Assembly (NCBI GenBank): GCA_965261085.1
Contig: OZ253442.1
Coordinates: forward strand, 3,328,001 to 3,392,000
Direction of reading: 5' to 3'
Origin: a bacterium
Lineage (GTDB): Bacteria > UBA8248
DNA length: 64,000 bases
Shown one piece after another: positions 66 to 52,969 of the stretch. Every line of letters begins with the position of its first letter. Position 1 is the stretch's first letter. Both the position numbers and the translations under genes were made by a program. The notes below the pieces were generated by a model, which ran no database searches, was not told where the DNA came from, and saw only the letters and a list, made by a program, of their open reading frames with translations.

Positions 66-73
66 GAATTATC
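66..73. repeat. 8-bp target site duplication, left copy (GAATTATC)
   Basis: Identical GAATTATC at 66-73 and 3143-3150, directly outside the inverted repeats. Confidence 0.9.
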
Positions 74-91
74 CGTGATTATGCACTTGAC
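74..91. repeat. terminal inverted repeat, element 1
   Basis: CGTGATTATGCACTTGAC vs reverse complement of 3125-3142 CGCGATTATGCACTTGAC. Confidence 0.9.
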
Positions 92-115
92 TAACCTTGG
101 CCCAACATGTAGTGT
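87..115 (+). promoter_or_regulatory. TIR-embedded promoter for passenger ORF 122 (probably leaderless)
   Basis: TTGACT-17bp-TAGTGT; the ATG at 122 begins 7 nt after the -10 and has no SD. Confidence 0.45.
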
Positions 116-121
116 CGTGGC

Positions 122-586
122 ATGTGGATACATATTCGCCTCACCCTCTGGTTTGGTTTTGCGTATGTTGTCGAAAGGGCGGCTGCCGTAATGTGGCCAG
201 AAGCGTCCATTTCTACATGGCTGACATTAGCCGCCATGTTCGTCATTGTGATTATAGTCGGTAATTATTGGCAGAGCGTCTCGGAAAAATATACTTGGAA
301 CTGGGGCCGTAAAGAACCGGATAATTTTTGGAACAACGTGGAGAAAGCAAATATCATCGCCAGAACAATCTATGCCGGAGAGAACTCTTTACTTCAATCA
401 AGGCGAACGGAAACCATCCTTACCGCACAGGAGACGATAAATGACATCCGCCAGCAAATGTCGGTGAAAGGATATATGGATATGCCTGATCCGATTGACG
501 TCGATCCTACGGGCAAGGATTGTTTGGTTGCCTTCAAGGCCTGGTACAAATACTTAAGTAAATTCCGAGCGAGACGAGGCCGATGA
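122..586 (+). CDS. hypothetical membrane protein (two N-terminal hydrophobic segments), IS passenger
   Basis: 154-aa ORF with hydrophobic N-terminus and soluble C-terminus; fills the space between TIR and the convergent lipoprotein gene. Confidence 0.65.
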   Translation: MWIHIRLTLWFGFAYVVERAAAVMWPEASISTWLTLAAMFVIVIIVGNYWQSVSEKYTWNWGRKEPDNFWNNVEKANIIARTIYAGENSLLQSRRTETILTAQETINDIRQQMSVKGYMDMPDPIDVDPTGKDCLVAFKAWYKYLSKFRARRGR

Positions 587-624
587 GAAAACGACCAATT
601 CCCCATCGGCCTCGCCCTTCACGA

Positions 625-1524
625 TTACCGCCGCGCCCCAAACGCGCCTGCTACCTCGTCGCGGATGAATACGCCACCCACTTCTTCGTGATTCGGGCCA
701 TAGAAGCGGCCCGTGAGCGAGTTGAAGCCATCACCCCGGTCTGCAAATGCAACGCCCACGGACAGATCGCCGTTATGGTCAAATGCTCCATTTCTCACGG
801 GCATATTGCTCCAAGACATGCTGGCTCGCCTCTCGTTCGTCGTTTGGTCAACGAGATTCGTGAACGAGACGCTGGCCGATGGATTGCTGAAATTGCTGAT
901 GCCGACCATGGCGTCGCCGATAATGACGTTGCCCTTGTCGTCCGTCTCGCTCGCATCGACACCAACGACGGCCCCGCGCCAAGTCGCGCTACCGGATATG
1001 GGGTTCGTGCCGGTCGCGTTTCCGACCGAGAATACGTCCGCGAAAACCTGCTCGGAAGGGTCGAGCGGATCATTGTCCATGGGATTCCATACGGCGAGAA
1101 GAAAGAAGCTGTGATCCATCCATCCGCCATAATCGAAGGCGTTTCCGGTGACGCCCCTGCTATGGGTTCCGGCCAGGGGGACTTCATGTCGGGTTTCGAG
1201 GCGTTGAAGGGCGCCGCCGCGCCGAGTCATGTCCGAGAGGTCAAGGTTCGTGGGAGTGGGCTGGGTTATTCTGGTGCTCCAGATATCCGCATTGATCGTG
1301 TTGGATTTGATCACGACGGTGGAAGCGTCGATCAGGCCATTCATGATTTCTCTCACCGCCCGAGGTTCAGGAGCAGGAGCGACTGGTGGTTGCTGTGGAG
1401 GCTCTCCGCCACCGGGCATTACCGGTGGAGTGGCTGGAACAGGAACACTCGATTTCTTGCCTCCACCACCACAACCTGCAATCAGAATTGCTACGAAGAG
1501 GCTCAGTACGATGTTCTTGATCAT
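625..1524 (-). CDS. surface lipoprotein with transferrin-binding-protein-like (TbpB-type) beta-barrel, IS passenger
   Basis: Lipobox IAGC-GGGG, Pro-rich linker, SATWRG and C-terminal GRFYGPNHEEVGGVF...GAFGA motifs. Confidence 0.75.
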   Translation of the reverse strand: MIKNIVLSLFVAILIAGCGGGGKKSSVPVPATPPVMPGGGEPPQQPPVAPAPEPRAVREIMNGLIDASTVVIKSNTINADIWSTRITQPTPTNLDLSDMTRRGGALQRLETRHEVPLAGTHSRGVTGNAFDYGGWMDHSFFLLAVWNPMDNDPLDPSEQVFADVFSVGNATGTNPISGSATWRGAVVGVDASETDDKGNVIIGDAMVGISNFSNPSASVSFTNLVDQTTNERRASMSWSNMPVRNGAFDHNGDLSVGVAFADRGDGFNSLTGRFYGPNHEEVGGVFIRDEVAGAFGARR

Positions 1525-1577
1525 GGAAGTATCCACCTCTATGGCGATATCCCGACCTCCCAGCGAGGCCGGGCCTT

Positions 1578-1709
1578 ATCACCATCACAGAGAAAAGTGA
1601 AGTCCCGCCTATTCACCTTTTGTCCGGGTAGCGAACCCGGAATCGGTGCAAGGCTGTTGTATTCAGCGAGCGACCCGACTCAGAAAGCAGGTCCCTCTGC
1701 GATGGTGAT
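1578..1709 (-). ncRNA. candidate structured leader RNA (closed multibranch) upstream of the lipoprotein gene
   Basis: 15-bp closing stem (1709-1695 with 1592-1578; one G-U pair on minus strand only), three internal hairpins, promoter directly upstream. Confidence 0.55.
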
Positions 1710-1715
1710 GAATGG

Positions 1716-1745
1716 AGTGTGCCGCGTTTTATCCGGTAACGTCAA
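1716..1745 (-). promoter_or_regulatory. sigma70-like promoter for the leader RNA and lipoprotein
   Basis: TTGACG-18bp-CACACT; predicted start ~1709 is the first base of the closing stem. Confidence 0.45.
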
Positions 1746-1783
1746 GGAGAATGTTCAAAAAGGGGTGTTCAAATATATATTCA

Positions 1784-1849
1784 ATGGGTGGCCCCACCCG
1801 CACCACTTCTGGGGAGAAATGGTGATTCCTGGCGAGTGGGGCCACCTAT
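1784..1849. repeat. long inverted repeat/hairpin in the IS interior
   Basis: GGTGGCCCCAC (1787-1797) / GTGGGGCCACC (1836-1846) enclosing CACCA-TTCT/AGAA-TGGTG. Confidence 0.6.
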
Positions 1850-1939
1850 CAGATTCTTTGCTGCGGCTACAATGGGGTCATCGCGCCTCATTCACATCAC
1901 CCCCTCTCGGATCGGGCGGGATAGACGCACTTTCCCTGC

Positions 1940-2037
1940 TTGACAAAGGTGCTCGGTATTTTGTAGGGTGGGGTTATTCGGATTTTTCACCCTTCAAGTC
2001 CCGAGCCGCCAGCGCCAACTGGCGGTTTACCTTTTCT
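1940..2037 (+). ncRNA. candidate small counter-transcribed RNA with its promoter
   Basis: TTGACA-18bp-TAGGGT, then hairpin GAGCCGCCAG-CGCCAA-CTGGCGGTTT (G-U pairs on plus strand) and a T-rich tail. Confidence 0.4.
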
Positions 2038-2043
2038 GGCAGT

Positions 2044-2931
2044 CTACGCTACCAGCTTCTTGTACTCAAGAGGTTTCGTGTTCACGATTCGCTTGAGCGT
2101 GTCGTTGAAAATGTAGTGGTTCTTGCGGTTGTTGTATCGCCATTCAAGCTCATCGAGATAGCGATCCATGTGCTTGACGCTCATCTTGTGGAACGCGCCC
2201 GTGAGCGAACGCTTGAACAGCGACCACACGCCCTCGATGCTGTTCGTATGGACATCACCCACGACCCATTCTTCCTCGGAGTGGTTCACGGTTTCATGGC
2301 GCGTGTCGCTGTCCTCAATGCCGATATAGGATTTGAGTTCATCCGTGTAAATGGCTTCGGCCTCATCCCGGATGGTGCGCTGGATGAAGTCGTGGAGCGT
2401 GTTCTTCTTGATGTTCGGAATTCGCTCAAGACGCACCTTGCCGCCGCGCTGGATGGCTCCCGCGACCCATTGCTTGTTCTTCTTGTAGCCCTTGCCTTTG
2501 CCCTTCGCCTTGCCGCCCACGAGCGTTTCATCGACTTCCACGACGCCCACAAGGGTGGGGCCGGAAAAAGGCTCGTTTCCCATGGCCTCGCGGATGCGGT
2601 GGCACAGGTACCACGCCGTGCGATAGGCCACGCCAAGCGTTCTCTGCATCTGGCAAGCGGAGATACCCTTCTTGGATTCACACATGAGATAGATGGCGAG
2701 AAACCACTTACGCAGGGGCAGGTGGGAATCATGCATAATGGTGCCCGATGTAACGCTGAACTGGTAATCACAGGACTTACACTTCCAGCGGTTGTGTTTT
2801 TCCAAATCCAGCACGTCCATATCGCCGCACCTGGTGCAACACACACCCGCAGGCCAGCGAATATCCTGCAACATCTTGCGGCAGGTATCATCGCAGTTGA
2901 ACTTATCAATCAAGTGCATGAGGTTCACCAT
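2044..2931 (-). CDS. tnp: IS1595-family transposase
   Basis: RWPAG..CTRC..CKSC..FSVTSGT Zn ribbon, EVDET, YTDE, VNHS, HTNSIEG.WSLFKR motifs; SD AGGAGG. Confidence 0.95.
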   Translation of the reverse strand: MVNLMHLIDKFNCDDTCRKMLQDIRWPAGVCCTRCGDMDVLDLEKHNRWKCKSCDYQFSVTSGTIMHDSHLPLRKWFLAIYLMCESKKGISACQMQRTLGVAYRTAWYLCHRIREAMGNEPFSGPTLVGVVEVDETLVGGKAKGKGKGYKKNKQWVAGAIQRGGKVRLERIPNIKKNTLHDFIQRTIRDEAEAIYTDELKSYIGIEDSDTRHETVNHSEEEWVVGDVHTNSIEGVWSLFKRSLTGAFHKMSVKHMDRYLDELEWRYNNRKNHYIFNDTLKRIVNTKPLEYKKLVA

Positions 2932-3097
2932 GGCTCAAAAGCCTCCTGGTAAGGGAAAACTCCCGAAGGACGCGCTCAAGCGGCCTGGGCGCGAACTCAT
3001 GGAGCATATATTCGGAACCACGATCATGAAAGAGGTGGACAAACTGACGCCCGACAAATCAAAAGACGATGAAAGTGATGATGAGGTATCCATATGA
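2930..3097 (+). CDS. small 55-aa ORF divergent from the transposase, start codons overlapping in CATG
   Basis: SD GAGGT; MAQKPPGKGKLPKDALKRPGRELMEHIFG... Confidence 0.45.
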   Translation: MAQKPPGKGKLPKDALKRPGRELMEHIFGTTIMKEVDKLTPDKSKDDESDDEVSI

Positions 3098-3100
3098 GGA

Positions 3101-3129
3101 AATATACATCTTGTGGCTCAGTTTGTCAA
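3101..3129 (-). promoter_or_regulatory. transposase promoter with -35 inside the TIR
   Basis: TTGACA-17bp-TATATT. Confidence 0.65.
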
Positions 3130-3142
3130 GTGCATAATCGCG
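3125..3142. repeat. terminal inverted repeat, element 1
   Basis: GTCAAGTGCATAATCGCG. Confidence 0.9.
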
Positions 3143-3150
3143 GAATTATC
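3143..3150. repeat. 8-bp target site duplication, right copy
   Basis: GAATTATC identical to 66-73. Confidence 0.9.
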
Positions 3151-4392: not shown

Positions 4393-5240
4393 ATGGCTAA
4401 ACTCCTGGTCCAGAATCTGAACAAATCCTATATCATCAATGAAGGCTTCGGTAAGCGCTCTCGCGTCCACGCCCTCCGGGACCTCAATCTCGAAGTGAAC
4501 GAAGGCGAGTTTGTCACCGTCATCGGCCCCAGCGGCTGCGGCAAGTCCACCTTTTTGATGGTGGTGGCCGGAATCCATCCATTCGACTCCGGGGTCCTTC
4601 TTCTCGACGGCCGGCCCATCAGCGAACCCGGCCTTGACCGGGGCGTCGTGTTTCAGGATTTTGCGCTCTTCTCCTGGATGACGGTTCGCGACAACGTCAA
4701 ATTCGGACTTTCGATGAAAGGGATGCCCAGGAGGAGCAGCACCGGATTTCGGAACACTATCTCCGCCTCGTCAATCTCCAGGAATTCGCCGACGTGTTCC
4801 CCCATCGCCTCTCGGGCGGGATGAAACAGCGAGTGGGCATCGCGCGGGCGATGGCGACAGAACCCGAAATCCTGTTGATGGACGAGCCGTTCGGCTCTCT
4901 GGACGCCCAGACCCGCAAGAGCCTTCAGATTCAGTTGCTCGACATCTGGCGGGAGACGAAAAAAACCATCGTCTTCATCACGCACAGCGTCCGCGAGGCG
5001 GTGTTCCTTTCGCAAAAAGTGGTGGTTTTGAGCGCTCGCCCGGGCAAGGTGGTGGAGACGATTCTGATAGACCTCACCTATGAAGAGCGCATTTCGCTTT
5101 CCGATCCTTTGATGGAGCATGAGCGCCGCCTGGAAAACCTCATCGAACAGCAAATCAAGGGCGATTTGTCGATGCGACCGATTCAGAAGCCGCCGCTTCC
5201 GAAATCTCCCGGCATTTTGGAGCAGGATATGCTGGAATGA
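4393..5240 (+). pseudogene. NitT/TauT ABC ATPase with a 1-nt frameshift near 4730
   Basis: Walker A GPSGCGKST in one frame; LSGGMKQ and LLMDEPF in another; one added base at CCCAGGAGG restores a continuous protein. May be a sequencing error. Confidence 0.8.
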
Positions 5241-38791: not shown

Positions 38792-39319
38792 AGCCCACCT
38801 CTCCTATCTCTCGGTTGCAGAAAAGGAAAGCGCATCAGCGCCTTCCACGTCTTTTTTCAACTTCCTGGTCGCGCATATTTCTCTGACGATTTCGTTTCGT
38901 ATCCCTTCCGCGAGCACCAGGCTTCGCGACGCGAAGGGTAAAAAGAACATTTCTCCAATATACCGGAGTATCGACGGCGCATGGGGACATCGAAAAAATC
39001 TTCCCTTGGAGAGATATTCGATGTCAGTTTTCCGCCCAGGTTTTTGAAATTGGATTTAGGATCATCACCGGCACGAGGGGCCGATGAAAACCACGCATAT
39101 TTCACGTCCATCGTGGACCTCTTTTAGTGGTTCAGAAATCGCAGGTGGATCTTTGATGGCGTGGTCACAAGTATAATTTATATCAGAGCATGGTTACTGT
39201 ACCACAGAGAATAAGGCTGGGCAATTTGGCGCAATAGGTTCATGGGTTGATGTCGACCAACCATAATTATTTTCAGCTTTCGTATGACAAATGAATAATT
39301 CAGGCCCATAATTAAATTT

Positions 39320-39343
39320 GGGGAATTATATACTTGGGTTGAC
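39320..39343. repeat. terminal inverted repeat, element 2
   Basis: GGGGAATTATATACTTGGGTTGAC vs reverse complement of 42373-42396 GGGGAATTATATATTTAGGTTGAC. Confidence 0.9.
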
Positions 39344-39367
39344 AAATCCCCCGTAAGGCCCTATATT
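39339..39367 (+). promoter_or_regulatory. transposase promoter with -35 in the TIR
   Basis: TTGACA-17bp-TATATT, the same hexamers as in element 1. Confidence 0.65.
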
Positions 39368-39393
39368 GCATGTATCACATAGGGGGATACAAG

Positions 39394-40346
39394 ATGGCGC
39401 AGAAGGCACCCGGCAAGGCATTCAGGAAGGGAATCACGATAATCGAACTGGCGCAGATGTTCCCGAACGAGGAAGCGGCTCGCAAGTGGTTCGAGGAAAT
39501 CATCTGGCCGGACGGATTGAGGTATTGCCCTGAGTGCGGAAGCGTCGATACGCACGAGTGCCAGCACGCCAAGATGCCGTACAGGTGCCGCGACTGCCGA
39601 AAGTATTTCAGCGTCAAGACCGGAACCGTGATGACGGGTTCTCCCGTTCCCCTGCTCAAGTGGCTCTACGCGATCTACCTGGACGTTACGTCGCTCAAGG
39701 GCGTTTCGAGCATGAAACTGCACCGCGATATCGGCGTCACGCAAAAGACCGCGTGGCACATGCAACAGCGCATCCGCGAGGCGTTCCGGGAGGAAGGCGG
39801 TCTGCTTTCCGGCCCGGTCGAAATCGACGAAACCTACGTGGGCGGCCTGAAAAGAAAAAGCACGGAAACAAGCGGCGTCGGGCCGGTCGCGGAGGAACCG
39901 GAAAGGATATCGTGGTCGGCATCAAGGACAGGGCCACGAACGAAATCCGCGCCAAGGTCGTGCCCGACACAAAGAAGGAAACGCTACACACGTTCATCGC
40001 CGAGAACGTGGCCGAGGGAGCCGAGAAGTTCACGGACGAGAATCGTTCGTATCGAGGACTCGACAACCACAGGGCCGTGAATCACAGCCTCGGTAAATGG
40101 GTCGATGAAATGGCCCACACGAACGGCTTGGAGTCGTTTTGGGCGATGTTCAAGAAAGGATTCCACGGCACGTTTCACCGCATGAGCCCGGCTCACCTTC
40201 ACCGCTACATCACGGAATTTGCCGGTAGACACAACATAAGATCTCTTGATACCATCGAACAGATGAAGCGGTTGGCCGAAGGGATGCGTGGAAGGCATCT
40301 TCCCTATAGTGATTTGGTGTCCGGTAATGAAAACAGCTATTCGTGA
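39394..40346 (+). pseudogene. tnp: IS1595-family transposase with a 1-nt frameshift near 39850
   Basis: CPEC..CRDC..FSVKTGT and EIDETY in the first frame; TDE, VNHS, HTNGLESFW in the second; break at CTGAAAAGAAAAAG. Confidence 0.88.
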
Positions 40347-40623
40347 AAATCCTCCTGATCGGTCTCGTGAAGCTCAGGGGCCATCACGTGCGAAACAACA
40401 GCCTCGGCCATCATCTTCATATTCCAAACGACTTCAGGAGCTAATTCCCAAGGATGTTCTGGAACTGAAACGGCGTCTATCCGATTCTGAATACCGTCAG
40501 TTACTTCTAAAGCAAGGTCCAAACCCTTATCGGGCGAATGTCTCCGAATGTTGCGAAGCGCTAAAGCGAGCAGGAGAAGAAACTTGTTTACGCTTTCTTC
40601 GTGGGGATTTTGAGCAGGCATAG
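40327..40623 (+). CDS. hypothetical protein overlapping the transposase 3' end
   Basis: 98-aa ORF followed by a hairpin; no recognisable motif. Confidence 0.4.
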   Translation: MKTAIRENPPDRSREAQGPSRAKQQPRPSSSYSKRLQELIPKDVLELKRRLSDSEYRQLLLKQGPNPYRANVSECCEALKRAGEETCLRFLRGDFEQA

Positions 40624-40653
40624 ATTCGTCCTTCCTTTCTAGGGGTTGGGCGC

Positions 40654-40690
40654 AAAAATACGGCGCTGGGCCTCATCACCCAGCGCCGTT
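40654..40690 (-). terminator. intrinsic terminator of the cargo operon
   Basis: CGGCGCTGGG/CCCAGCGCCG 10-bp stem with a T-rich tail on the minus strand. Confidence 0.7.
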
Positions 40691-40696
40691 GTCGTG

Positions 40697-40843
40697 CTAT
40701 TGCGAGCGTCCAGTCATCCAGCAGAAGATACCATAAACGGCACTTCCCATGCAGATCACGGCAAACAGGATGATCGTCCAGACGAAATCACCTACGAATT
40801 GAAATAAGCTCCATGCCGTGGCGCCTAGAATGTAATCAATCAT
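40697..40843 (-). CDS. 48-aa hydrophobic membrane peptide, IS passenger (not in ORF track)
   Basis: MIDYILGATAWSLFQFVGDFVWTIILFAVICMGSAVYGIFCWMTGRSQ; G-rich SD; fills the gap to the terminator. Confidence 0.55.
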   Translation of the reverse strand: MIDYILGATAWSLFQFVGDFVWTIILFAVICMGSAVYGIFCWMTGRSQ

Positions 40844-40853
40844 CCGCCACCCC

Positions 40854-41351
40854 CTATCGCCCCAGTGATTTTAGTTCGTTCAGGCAGGCGCGGCTGTATT
40901 TGTGACATCCCGTCTGGAAGTAGTAGTTCTTATCGAGCGCGCGGTTTCCGCGCTCCAGTTCTTTGACCTTCCATTCGGGCATCCTGAACCCGCGCGTGTA
41001 CGGTTGGGTCCCGTAGGGGTCGGAAGGGTTGTGTTGTTGGGCGCGTTGTCTCATTTCGCGGAGAGCATTTTGTAGGGCCTGCTGGCGCTGTATCTGTTGT
41101 TGCCTGAGCGCATGGAGGCGTTGCTCGAGGGTCTGCACTCCGCTTTGCCGCGCGGGCGAGTTAAGCGTCGGAAGCGAACCGAGCCCCGATGGCGTCCGGT
41201 ATTGGTGTCCTTGGTTCTGCTGGGGCTGGTATCCACCACCATATAGCGGGCTTCCGCCTTGAGGAAGTTGCGTGTACGGGACGGACTGCGCGGCCGCGGC
41301 CACCGGAAACGACAGAATCAGAAACAGAACTCCTATCTTTATGTGCTTCAT
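40854..41351 (-). CDS. secreted Gln/Pro/Gly-rich protein with coiled coil, IS passenger
   Basis: SD AAGGAG; signal peptide MKHIKIG...AAAA-Q; QQQIQRQQ helix; two C-terminal Cys. Confidence 0.7.
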   Translation of the reverse strand: MKHIKIGVLFLILSFPVAAAAQSVPYTQLPQGGSPLYGGGYQPQQNQGHQYRTPSGLGSLPTLNSPARQSGVQTLEQRLHALRQQQIQRQQALQNALREMRQRAQQHNPSDPYGTQPYTRGFRMPEWKVKELERGNRALDKNYYFQTGCHKYSRACLNELKSLGR

Positions 41352-41362
41352 GGTTTTTCTCC

Positions 41363-41506
41363 TTAATGACAGTGATAGCCGACCCGGACGCCATTGACCC
41401 AGACGTAATGGCATCCACTAAAATTCGTTCCGCCACTGTGCGCGGCCACGATGACTGGCGACAAGAGCGCACCAATGAGAAGCGACACGAGGATTGCGTT
41501 TTGCAT
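41363..41506 (-). CDS. 47-aa secreted YHYH-like (HSGGT..GCH..YHCH) microprotein, IS passenger (not in ORF track)
   Basis: SD GGAGG; MQNAILVSLLIGALLSPVIVAA-HSGGTNFSGCHYVWVNGVRVGYHCH. Confidence 0.75.
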   Translation of the reverse strand: MQNAILVSLLIGALLSPVIVAAHSGGTNFSGCHYVWVNGVRVGYHCH

Positions 41507-41541
41507 GGGGTTTCCCTCCGTTCATGAATGGCCGGTAAAGG

Positions 41542-41650
41542 TTGAGATTGAACGGTAGGATATGATAATCAAGGTATTGCAACGCGTTGTAGTGTGACTT
41601 ACCCCACCACAAGGAGGTCTCGGTTGCCGCCGAGGCCTCCTCACTTTTTT
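41542..41650 (+). ncRNA. candidate small counter-transcribed RNA with promoter and terminator
   Basis: TTGAGA-16bp-GATAAT; hairpin AGGAGGTCTCGG-TTGCCG-CCGAGGCCTCCT followed by T6. Confidence 0.45.
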
Positions 41651-41654
41651 GTGC

Positions 41655-41790
41655 AAAAATGACAACCGGCAGTCCGGGCCGGTTGTCACGCACTCCACTG
41701 GATAGGTGGGTTCCCGCGTATTCCCTCGTAATCGAGGTGTTTTATTTCGCGGGCGACCCGAAGGGCCTGCCCCAGCGAATCACGTGACAA
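41655..41790 (-). ncRNA. candidate attenuator/riboswitch-like leader of the cargo operon
   Basis: Long irregular hairpin whose closing 3' arm overlaps a perfect 11-bp terminator stem (41660-41688) with a U5 tail. Confidence 0.55.
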
Positions 41791-41795
41791 TCGGA

Positions 41796-41870
41796 AATAT
41801 GCTACCTTGCAGGAAATCTGTCAAGGTGCACACAAAGGGTCTTGACGTAACATGAGGCAATCGGGATAAT
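41796..41870. promoter_or_regulatory. back-to-back divergent sigma70-like promoters
   Basis: Minus: TTGACA(41824-41819)-17bp-CATATT; plus: TTGACG(41842-41847)-17bp-GATAAT. Confidence 0.6.
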
Positions 41871-41899
41871 GGCTGACCCTGAACGGAGGACACCAATCC

Positions 41900-42088
41900 A
41901 TGGCCACTAAAAAATGTGAAATATGCGGATCTAAACATTTTGAAGAAGTCAAGCAACATACGTTTTGTTTCAAATGTGGTGCCCGCGAAAGCGCCATTAT
42001 TAAGGATCTTCATCCATTGGCTTGGCAAAAGCGTATAAGTGCCACTAGAACACCGCGACCGACAAAAAAGGTGCGAAATGGACGCTGA
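41900..42088 (+). CDS. small zinc-ribbon protein, IS passenger
   Basis: CEICG...CFKCG; SD GGAGG. Confidence 0.65.
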   Translation: MATKKCEICGSKHFEEVKQHTFCFKCGARESAIIKDLHPLAWQKRISATRTPRPTKKVRNGR

Positions 42089-42257
42089 GCTCAAGGAATA
42101 CCTCGAAGCGATGGAAGCGCGTATAAACGAACGCTTCGATAAGATGCAGGCCGAGAATAACTGCTGGCACGAAAAAACCTATCGTCTGCAAGTTGGCTTG
42201 GAATCACGGGTAAATTCCCTTGAGGATAGAGTGAGTGCCTTAGAGAAGGGGTATTGA
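42078..42257 (+). CDS. small coiled-coil protein, IS passenger
   Basis: MDAELKEYLEAMEARINERFD...LESRVNSLEDRVSALE heptads; SD AAGGT. Confidence 0.65.
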   Translation: MDAELKEYLEAMEARINERFDKMQAENNCWHEKTYRLQVGLESRVNSLEDRVSALEKGY

Positions 42258-42258
42258 C

Positions 42259-42390
42259 ATGACCGACAAGAAACCGAAGCAACCCACCAAGAAAGAGCCG
42301 CTCAAGGCCGATTACAAGGGCGCGACACCCCGACAGGTCGGCAAGGCCGTGTTGACCTATCGTCCGAAGTCCGTCAACCTAAATATATAA
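42259..42390 (+). CDS. 43-aa basic peptide ending inside the TIR (not in ORF track)
   Basis: MTDKKPKQPTKKEPLKADYKGATPRQVGKAVLTYRPKSVNLNI; SD AAGGGG. Confidence 0.5.
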   Translation: MTDKKPKQPTKKEPLKADYKGATPRQVGKAVLTYRPKSVNLNI

Positions 42391-42396
42391 TTCCCC
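42373..42396. repeat. terminal inverted repeat, element 2
   Basis: GTCAACCTAAATATATAATTCCCC. Confidence 0.9.
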
Positions 42397-42765
42397 TAAC
42401 TTTTATTATCTTCCGTCCGCATCAAGCCGTCTTTACCGGACGTGGAATCCTGTTATCTTGTTGATATCATTGGGAGACAATCATAATCAAAAAGCTCGTT
42501 CGGAATCCGCCTTCCGCAACATGTAATCAAAAAGAAAGCGGGCCAATTATAACTCCCGCGCAGAGCGGAGCGCTCCTGTCGAAATGTCCTCCAAAGTCCG
42601 GCCCACAACGGTTTGATTGCGGTTATGCTCCGCTGCCCCGCAACGTTCATTCAGGAACCACCGGTCGGCCCGCGGCGTAGCCTCCGCCGCAGCTTGTTCG
42701 AAGTCGCCGGAGGCTGAAACAACCCGAGGCGGAGCGCGCCGTCCAGTTCCGCGCCGCCGGCGGGA

Positions 42766-52216: not shown

Positions 52217-52969
<753 letters not shown>

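Follow-up and report, generated by a model that had tools for sequence, protein, structure and literature searches.

A candidate riboswitch-like leader RNA family with members on IS1595-family elements

A 64-kb stretch of bacterial DNA (contig OZ253442.1, positions 3,328,001-3,392,000; hereafter the window, whose own numbering is used below) contains, at positions 41655-41824, a region that from its sequence and surroundings appears to be the 5′ leader of a three-gene cargo operon on an element of the IS1595 family of insertion sequences (ISs). Comparative analysis indicates that this leader, which lies on the minus strand and whose coordinates are read on that strand throughout, is a genuine and conserved RNA, specific to its strand, that belongs to a new family. 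In this copy, the 3′ side of the structured domain also supplies bases to the 5′ arm of a predicted intrinsic terminator, and we tentatively read the whole as an effector-sensing, riboswitch-like ON switch and a member of a new leader family, an interpretation to which we give a little less than an even chance.

A conserved, strand-specific leader RNA

The domain is predicted to contain four helices (P1 to P4; Table 1) and, according to the conservation line of the alignment, about 30 conserved unpaired bases. The minus-strand transcript has a predicted folding energy of -66.4 kcal/mol (z = -4.30), a stability reached by 1 of 200 shuffled sequences; the plus strand has a z-score of -2.97. The closing helix TTGTCACG/CGTGACAA, the stem CCCGCG/CGCGGG, and the hairpin CCTCG-ATTA-CGAGG, all named in the original prediction (a first reading made from the letters of the window alone), were found where it had placed them and correspond to P1, P3, and P4. 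The minimum free energy (MFE) fold lengthens P3 by GGGU:ACCC, but this extension was rejected because it shows no covariation and breaks when its position 4 is C.

Compensatory change supports all four helices. In alignments fitted to our own structure model, 93.9% of cells were paired among 19 sequences (29-42% when the 3′ partners were slid), 92.8% among 43 sequences, and 90.2% among 108 distinct sequences (33-42% when slid), and in the largest set 33 of 37 pairs had changed on both sides. Split by helix, compensatory changes in the 108 sequences fell in 20 of 20 pairs of P1/P2, 6 of 6 of P3, and 4 of 4 of P4. As an independent check, 38 members, with the window sequences excluded, were aligned with MAFFT and folded with RNAalifold, which recovered P1-P4 with compensatory changes in 26 of its 30 predicted pairs. 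G-U pairs are common in the helices (at three pairs, for example, UG occurs 49, 39, and 25 times among the 108 sequences), and since the opposite strand would show mismatches at these positions, they point to the minus strand. The strand given in the original prediction is borne out by these family-wide G-U pairs together with the conserved promoter distance described below.

Every member also carries CRRCCCG directly 3′ of P1, complementary to CGGGYYG directly 5′ of P3. These strands are paired in 91.5% of cells over the 108 sequences and in 97.4% on the MAFFT alignment, and two of their pairs covary, one occurring as CG 65, UA 26, and UG 11 times and another as UG 49, CG 31, and UA 12 times among the 108 sequences. 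Complementarity and these few covariations lend moderate support to a pseudoknot, which in the window copy would join CGGGUCG to CGGCCCG. Its 5′ strand has a second possible partner, a GRCCU run upstream that could pair with GGGYC; this hairpin was predicted by RNAalifold on the MAFFT alignment, where 90% of its cells pair and 9 show changes on both sides.

Two models were used to trace the family: R1, and the independent R2, a covariance model of the 38 MAFFT-aligned sequences, none of them from the window. R2 has only two matches in the 64 kb, the leader domain itself and a second copy at 1558-1710 (Table 1). The original prediction had proposed an Rfam and covariance search as a check; Rfam 15 at gathering scores gave 0 matches over the whole window, covariation supports P1-P4, and the independent R2 model finds the locus. 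A DNA search with the element detected relatives in 21 of 60 other genomes (19 of 22 of the same genus and 2 of 7 of another family of the class), which have in common, first by eye and then by alignment, the four helices and the long conserved unpaired runs. R1 gave 10 matches in the window's genome, the weakest of which (at genome positions 2082302-2082446, 29.5 bits) is preceded by a TTGACA box and followed, after 654 nt, by a lipoprotein gene. Over 51 genomes of the phylum, R1 found matches in 24, the window's genome included: 20 of 22 congeners carry 1-17 copies each, and one genome of each of three other genera carries a single copy. An exact 18-mer of the core, searched over 185,579 species genomes, hit 35 loci, of which 20 are true members (the labeled ones belong to Nitrospinota or Nitrospinaceae) and 15, from other phyla, were set aside as chance matches. 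Neither BLAST of the element against 72,556 plasmids nor R1 over 19 genomes of a neighboring phylum returned a match. In a listing-level survey of the literature on riboswitches and structured RNAs of Nitrospinota and on IS1595 passenger genes, the leader family was not described.

Some copies depart from the usual arrangement (loci and genomes carry the labels L and G). A 109-nt "mini" variant, with a very short P2, intact core and pseudoknot strands, and near-identical scores of about 42 bits, occurs in many copies in two genomes (8 in G002, e.g., L150 and L151, and 3 in G013, e.g., L152) and at L169; it lacks the TTGACA box and may be a separate repeated element. Elsewhere, tandem same-strand leader copies stand 150-650 nt apart before one lipoprotein gene (L023, at G000:1672659-1673075, and L035, L036, L125, and L127), some of them with their own promoter box.

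A promoter at a fixed distance from the domain

The original prediction had proposed TTGACA-17-CATATT as the promoter of the leader, with a start near 41789. Both the sequence and a promoter scan place it there, and it is the sole minus-strand sigma-70-like site that the scan found within 40500-42500. Counting the 17-nt spacer, the 6-nt -10 box, and 6 further bases, +1 is predicted to fall on the first base of P1, at about 41789. The same spacing recurs across the family: a TTGACA match of at least 5 of 6 lies 27-34 nt upstream of the first model base in 77 of 109 members, compared with 9 of 109 shuffled sequences, and in 47 of those 77 the box lies at exactly 29 nt. With the promoter distance fixed and +1 on P1, the promoter and leader RNA would move as a single unit. 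The original prediction had counted a separate downstream promoter for the cargo genes as a point that would overturn it; the consensus scan detected no second minus-strand promoter ahead of cargo gene 1, including the interval from 41655 to that gene.

A predicted terminator that overlaps the domain

In the window copy, the end of the domain runs into a perfect 11-bp stem, TGACAACCGGC/GCCGGTTGTCA, with 7 G-C pairs and a U5 tract. That this terminator overlaps the 3′ arm of the closing helix had been seen in the original prediction, and the two indeed have 6 nt in common (41688-41683); the terminator 5′ arm also takes in 4 nt of the pseudoknot 3′ strand (41681-41678). The terminator structure thus excludes the aptamer-side structure (P1 and the pseudoknot) in this copy. 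When only nested pairs are allowed, the full P1 plus a 7-bp partial hairpin comes to -59.2 kcal/mol, as against -58.5 kcal/mol when the terminator is complete and P1 is shortened. Since these forms are near equal and the pseudoknot duplex is worth about -11.3 kcal/mol in this copy, the pseudoknot could tip the balance. These calculations suggest that the competitor of the terminator is probably the pseudoknot more than P1 alone. The antiterminator/terminator switch of the original prediction keeps its ON-switch geometry and gains a conserved, covarying domain, but the main competitor that it had assigned, P1, probably has to give way to the pseudoknot. Comparison across the family also makes a regulatory leader far more probable than could be judged from the letters of the window alone.

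Elsewhere in the family, too, the pseudoknot 3′ strand tends to be claimed by a downstream hairpin. A strong contiguous stem on this strand is present in 23 of 41 members, compared with 12.7% of shuffled downstream sequences, and the mean score of the contiguous stem in these 41 members is 7.99, compared with 3.55 in the shuffles (highest shuffle-set mean, 4.87). By a loose rule, the 3′ hairpin is terminator-like in 17 of 109 members. The clearest versions by eye are those of the window copy, L026, L121, L139, L040, L114, and L116, whose stems are unrelated to one another; L026 is in the same genome as the window and likewise adjoins a transposase. Gating by a terminator, as originally predicted, therefore holds geometrically for this copy but is not a feature of the family. 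As a general scheme, the family switch may set the pseudoknot against a 3′ hairpin, with termination as one of several outputs.

A proposed ON switch

The mechanism that we propose builds on points that we regard as established: the features of the sequence itself, the existence of the family, covariation in P1-P4, a promoter at constant distance, the geometry of the overlap, and the genetic surroundings. Transcription would start at about 41789 on the first base of P1, and in the first ~115 nt, P1 and P2 would form one long helix and P3 and P4 a hairpin whose internal loops are A-rich and conserved, together with the pseudoknot. The switch itself could work like an attenuator of four segments: 41767-41763 (segment 1), the 5′ strand of the pseudoknot (segment 2), its 3′ strand and the end of P1 (segment 3), and the terminator 3′ arm at 41670-41660 (segment 4). 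With 2:3 paired, that is, with the pseudoknot closed and P1 intact, no terminator would form, and RNA polymerase would read into the cargo genes; with 1:2 and 3:4 paired, the 11-bp/U5 terminator would form and stop transcription at about 41655. We propose that the closed form is stabilized by an effector bound at the conserved junctions, most probably a small molecule or an ion. Stabilizing the closed form would mean more read-through, which would make this copy an ON switch. Within this scheme we infer the pseudoknot, the 1:2 pairing, that an effector exists and of what kind it is, and which way control runs.

Several results weigh against such a switch. Even without an effector, the nested fold retains P1 and only the 7-bp hairpin. 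The consensus terminator scan of 40500-42500 did not report the 11-bp/U5 hairpin, probably owing to a possible extra G-T pair that would extend the stem and leave only 4 T in the tail window of the scan. The pseudoknot and 1:2 strands are near invariant, so column shuffles pair almost as well as the observed sequences (96.3% versus 97.4% for the pseudoknot and 87.0% versus 90.0% for the 1:2 hairpin) and independent covariations are few; the members of the family are moreover largely orthologues or paralogues, so the counts given above overstate independent events. Whole-segment MFE folds, a weak measure of sequestration that we replaced by the contiguous stem, show downstream pairing of the pseudoknot strand in 33 of 41 members but also in 46% of shuffles. 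In the remaining 92 of 109 members, the hairpin lacks a U-tract or is absent by the loose rule, and no consistent masking of the ribosome-binding site was found in members without a terminator, which leaves their output unexplained. The downstream genes are varied, and among 71 of their proteins scanned, 43 had no Pfam family at the thresholds used, so that no ligand can be deduced from them. The genome has one GGDEF gene, which argues against a large regulon of cyclic di-GMP (c-di-GMP).

Table 1. Leader RNA, cargo operon, and IS1595-family elements in the window
Feature	Position	Strand	Evidence
Sigma-70-type promoter: TTGACA (41824-41819), 17-nt spacer, CATATT (41801-41796)	41796-41824	-	Promoter scan, 10/12 matches
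Structured leader RNA domain, ~127 nt	41663-41789	-	R1, 108.5 bits; R2, 89.4 bits, E 1.6e-18; fold z-score (see text)
P1 5′ arm TTGTCACG, extreme 5′ end of predicted transcript	41790-41783	-	Sequence; compensatory changes
P1 3′ arm CGTGACAA, pairs with TTGTCACG	41690-41683	-	41688-41683 common to terminator 5′ arm
P2 5′ arm TTCGCTGG, partner 41701-41694	41779-41772	-	Sequence, fold, alignment covariation
P2 3′ arm CCAGTGGA	41701-41694	-	Sequence, fold, alignment covariation
Segment 1, GGCCC; possible pairing with GGGTC (41759-41755) of segment 2	41767-41763	-	RNAalifold homologous hairpin; mapped onto window by eye
Segment 2, pseudoknot 5′ strand CGGGTCG	41760-41754	-	Complementarity, alignment
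P3 5′ arm CCCGCG, partner 41718-41713	41753-41748	-	Sequence, alignment
P4 hairpin CCTCG-ATTA-CGAGG, between conserved unpaired runs AAATAAAACA and GGAATA	41737-41724	-	Sequence; alignment conservation
P3 3′ arm CGCGGG	41718-41713	-	Sequence, alignment
Conserved unpaired run AACCCACC, P3-P2 interval	41712-41705	-	Alignment conservation
Segment 3, pseudoknot 3′ strand CGGCCCG; 41681-41678 in terminator stem, 41677-41675 in its loop	41681-41675	-	Sequence, alignments
Predicted intrinsic terminator: 11-bp stem TGACAACCGGC/GCCGGTTGTCA, 7-nt loop, U5	41688-41678 with 41670-41660; U5 41659-41655	-	Sequence; hairpin alone -18.6 kcal/mol
Second leader hairpin, GGAGG-containing 5′ arm with CCTCC; plus strand reads as 13-bp terminator with T6	41641-41612	-	Terminator scan
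Cargo gene 1: 47-aa secreted Cys/His-rich peptide, ribosome-binding site GGAGGG	41363-41506	-	Open reading frame; no Pfam family
Cargo gene 2: 165-aa secreted Gln-rich protein	40854-41351	-	23/56 identities to L149 homologue; no Pfam family
Cargo gene 3: 48-aa hydrophobic peptide	40697-40843	-	Open reading frame; no Pfam family
Operon-end terminator, 12 bp then ATTTTT	40660-40689	-	Terminator scan
Element 2, IS1595 family; 30-nt inverted ends 39314-39343/42373-42402, 87% complementary	39314-42402		Inverted-repeat search
Element 1, IS1595 family; 40-nt inverted ends 72-111/3105-3144, 80% complementary	72-3144		Inverted-repeat search
Second in-window leader copy, long-P4 type	1553-1713	-	R1; R2, 59.6 bits at 1558-1710

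IS1595-family elements and their cargo

The original prediction had spoken of an "element" and its "cargo," and both words are apt, as the two leader copies of the window lie inside elements that have inverted ends and an IS1595-type transposase. Element 2 encloses the leader and the cargo genes, with the leader internal and not at the ends. Its transposase is divided between two frames (39370-40346, plus strand; Zn_ribbon_IS1595, 1.5e-8; DDE_Tnp_IS1595, 8.3e-33), and no clear target duplication was seen in its flanks. Element 1 encodes an intact transposase of 295 aa (2931-2047; DDE_Tnp_IS1595, 1.3e-37; zinc ribbon, 3.6e-10) and has AATTAT on both flanks; the target-site duplication expected for the IS1595 family is 8 bp. 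The leader copy on element 1 precedes a TbpB-like lipoprotein gene (1524-628). A 789-aa plus-strand open reading frame (ORF) at 583-2952 overlaps the genes of element 1, has no Pfam family, and is probably spurious.

In the window's genome, 4 of 10 leader matches lie within 6 kb of one of 9 IS1595-type transposase loci. Across the genomes searched, 19 of 149 leader matches lie within 5 kb of a transposase match and 130 do not; seen from the other side, 19 of 56 transposase loci have a leader match within 5 kb, where about 0.9 would be expected by chance. These counts suggest that the module of promoter, leader, and gene is a frequent passenger of the IS1595 family. IS1595-family insertion sequences were reportedly described by Siguier, Gagnevin and Chandler in 2009. 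Like family members with passenger genes, the elements in the window combine a DDE_Tnp_IS1595 and zinc-ribbon transposase with terminal inverted repeats and extra genes inside; element 2 differs from known IS1595 elements in its split transposase and in that no target duplication was seen. To our knowledge, and in the literature that we searched, a conserved structured leader RNA at the head of IS1595 passenger genes has not been reported.

Cargo genes 1 and 2 recur jointly behind another member of the family, L149 in genome G013. The mature part of cargo peptide 1 is identical at 21 of 25 positions (84%) to its homologue at L149:1184-1330 (minus strand), and its C terminus reads NFSGCH(Y/W)VWVNGVRV(G/S)YHCH across the window and L149, a Cys/His arrangement that, speculatively, may bind metal. 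In the protein atlas, cargo proteins 1 and 2 had no match above lead level. Between the terminator and the cargo genes, the second leader hairpin has homologues with changed pairs, followed by GGTGGGGTTAGCCAC, in L149 and L102 (by eye), and after the hairpin (region 41641-41570) the motif GGTGGGGT(A/T)AG(T/C)CAC is kept in the L149 and L102 cargo leaders.

On the plus strand, a promoter-like site, TTGAGA-16-GATAAT (41542-41569), faces the 13-bp hairpin and T6 tract at 41612-41641, and the two could give an RNA of about 75 nt antisense to the cargo leader. By eye, this promoter is not conserved in the homologous L149 leader; the antisense region has a faint match to BSnc120 of Rfam (23.9 bits, E 0.007, gathering score 114). 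At the right end of element 2 (41900-42390, plus strand), three small ORFs of 62, 72, and 43 aa diverge from the leader promoter; they lie behind TTGACG-17-GATAAT (41842-41870), and the first has a zinc-ribbon-like CxxC...CxxC start. The window also holds an 88-nt direct repeat, 77% identical, at 4637-4724 and 52452-52539, 47.8 kb apart.

Throughout the family, leader copies precede same-strand ORFs with ribosome-binding sites. By a crude classification that takes in spurious frames, the first such ORF has a lipobox in 29 of 109 members, another signal or membrane segment in 24, and neither in 48; 8 have no such frame. The downstream Pfam matches include TbpB-type lipoprotein barrels (4 above the curated cutoff and 2 below), bacterial sugar transferase (4), and Sel1, DUF4875, outer membrane beta-barrel, and glycosyltransferase 25 (2 each), with single matches to CsgG, O-antigen ligase, GH113, SWM repeat, 17-kDa surface antigen, SNase, HAMP, and GAF-HisKA. 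On these annotations, the identified downstream proteins appear to be mostly envelope or surface proteins. The shape of the hairpin had also brought integron attC sites and retron RNAs to mind. Both ideas were dropped, that of a retron because Pfam scans of the inspected downstream ORFs showed no reverse-transcriptase family.

Comparison with known regulatory RNAs

Transcriptional ON riboswitches, such as the adenine-sensing pbuE/ydhL leader, have a conserved 5′ structured domain, a closing-helix or pseudoknot 3′ strand in common with the 5′ arm of the terminator, and variable expression platforms. The leader resembles them in each of these respects: it has a covarying domain, a predicted 5′ leader position on the strand of the gene, and an expression platform that excludes the aptamer fold. 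It differs from them in that it matches no Rfam 15 family, that most members have no terminator, and that its RNA is predicted to begin exactly at P1, with a promoter at a fixed distance and many copies on IS elements. Attenuators of the trp type switch among alternative 1:2, 2:3, and 3:4 pairings, and a translated leader peptide couples the position of the ribosome to the choice. Here, too, there are four segments, with 3:4 as terminator and 2:3 as antiterminator, and all three pairings are possible in this copy and in relatives. Unlike in trp-type leaders, no leader peptide is evident, though no search was aimed at one, and segments 2 and 3 lie about 70 nt apart across the folded domain, so that 2:3 would be a pseudoknot. 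The cis-acting RNAs of processive antitermination, such as put of HK022 and EAR of the Bacillus eps operons, are likewise promoter-proximal structured RNAs before terminators and surface-polysaccharide or envelope genes, and genes for sugar transferases, O-antigen ligase, and glycosyltransferases follow some leader members. Such antitermination RNAs do not require a competing hairpin, however, whereas here the terminator and the domain have bases in common, and no Rfam match to such families was found.

The only Rfam family to recur in narrow, relaxed scans was sRNA-Xcc1 (RF02221), which scored 16.0, 13.9, and 16.5 bits in three of four members, far below its gathering score of 53; it had no match in the fourth member and none genome-wide at E ≤ 10. 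The outer GC-rich helix of sRNA-Xcc1 aligns on the pseudoknot strands of the leader, and its core matches in the order P3, AAUACAA.A, hairpin, GGAAUA. The visible portion of a preprint places it upstream of a gene, symE, on mobile DNA, in Xanthomonas integron cassettes (bioRxiv 10.1101/2025.06.18.660453), and in the portion seen, the Rfam 15 paper names it among families with improved structure (PMC11701678). The outer helix of sRNA-Xcc1 is nested around two hairpins, whereas the second helix of the leader uses the 5′ end of the transcript, which turns the outer helix into a pseudoknot; the hosts and downstream genes are also unlike. We regard the likeness as faint, a resemblance and not membership, with homology not established. 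Other relaxed Rfam matches (mir-TAR, PtaRNA1 on the terminator hairpin, and fragments of long noncoding RNAs) were rejected as being at chance level. The two classes of c-di-GMP riboswitch (RF01051, class I, and RF01786, class II) were absent from scans of the window, and a genome-wide search with RF01051 was empty but uninformative, as its controls were also silent. That c-di-GMP is the effector, an idea raised on account of the surface and biofilm genes, is weakened by the single GGDEF match.

Alternative explanations

A protein or a trans-acting RNA, and not a small ligand, could bind the domain and choose between the pseudoknot and the 3′ hairpin, thereby coordinating a regulon of surface proteins. 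The family forms a multicopy regulon, with 1-17 members in a genome placed before envelope genes, which fits this idea, as does its confinement to one lineage, which is expected of a co-evolving lineage-specific factor, and the functions of the genes point to no ligand. A domain of about 115 nt with four helices, a pseudoknot, and some 30 conserved unpaired bases nevertheless exceeds the usual protein-binding leader sites, as generally known, and no candidate regulator gene was found beside the copies inspected, in what was not a systematic search; we consider a dedicated factor fairly unlikely. The leader may instead be constitutive and sense nothing: its 5′-terminal helix and compact fold may simply protect the mRNA from 5′-end-dependent decay or insulate the cargo promoter inside the transposon, with the terminator as a fixed attenuation. 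A base-paired 5′ end does stabilize mRNA, as in the ompA leader, and P1 starts at the predicted +1 in most members, the nested MFE already favors the P1 form, and the output platform is not conserved. For such a role, however, a terminal hairpin would suffice, and the conserved junctions, the pseudoknot complementarity, and the recurrent competing 3′ hairpin would be left unexplained. In our judgment, a constitutive leader of this kind is unlikely.

The promoter and the good terminator of the window copy would also suit a stand-alone, trans-acting small RNA of about 135 nt (41789-41655), with the cargo genes transcribed from another start; some members have no obvious nearby downstream gene (e.g., the L035/L036 group and L025), and the conserved C-rich loop AACCCACC could, speculatively, serve as a seed. 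We think this quite improbable, given that no minus-strand consensus promoter was found from 41655 to gene 1, that the homologous leader of the L149 operon has no U-tract after it and runs on into the same second hairpin and genes, and that terminators are absent from most members. The concentration of leader matches near IS1595-type transposases, including the four copies so placed in the window's genome, might instead mark a site that acts in the transposon as DNA, for example in transposase binding or recombination, and not as RNA. To this already disfavored idea we give very little credence: compensatory changes with many G-U pairs are strand specific, the promoter spacing is fixed, most matches lie away from any transposase, and the copies are internal to the elements. 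A riboswitch-like ON switch remains our preferred, though tentative, account of the leader.

Implications

A broader hypothesis, which we consider less likely than not, is that the leader represents a new riboswitch class, an attenuator of four segments whose middle pairing is a pseudoknot. Fused to its own promoter, it might form a portable "promoter plus sensor" cassette, used by IS1595-family transposons and by chromosomal loci to bring rapidly evolving surface lipoproteins, along with envelope genes, under a single common signal in sponge-associated Nitrospinota; sRNA-Xcc1 would then possibly be a distant topological relative within a wider group of mobile-element cargo leaders.

Even without an effector, the leader would stand as a well-supported new family of structured leader RNAs. 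If the riboswitch-like ON switch is true, it would add an undescribed orphan family of more than 100 examples with a clear fold and a testable switch, and it would mark out a set of jointly regulated surface and envelope proteins in an uncultured lineage of symbionts for which no genetics exist. It would also be a rare case of a structured sensor RNA that moves jointly with its promoter to control the passenger genes of a transposon and would bear on how mobile elements hold the expression of their cargo under host-relevant control.

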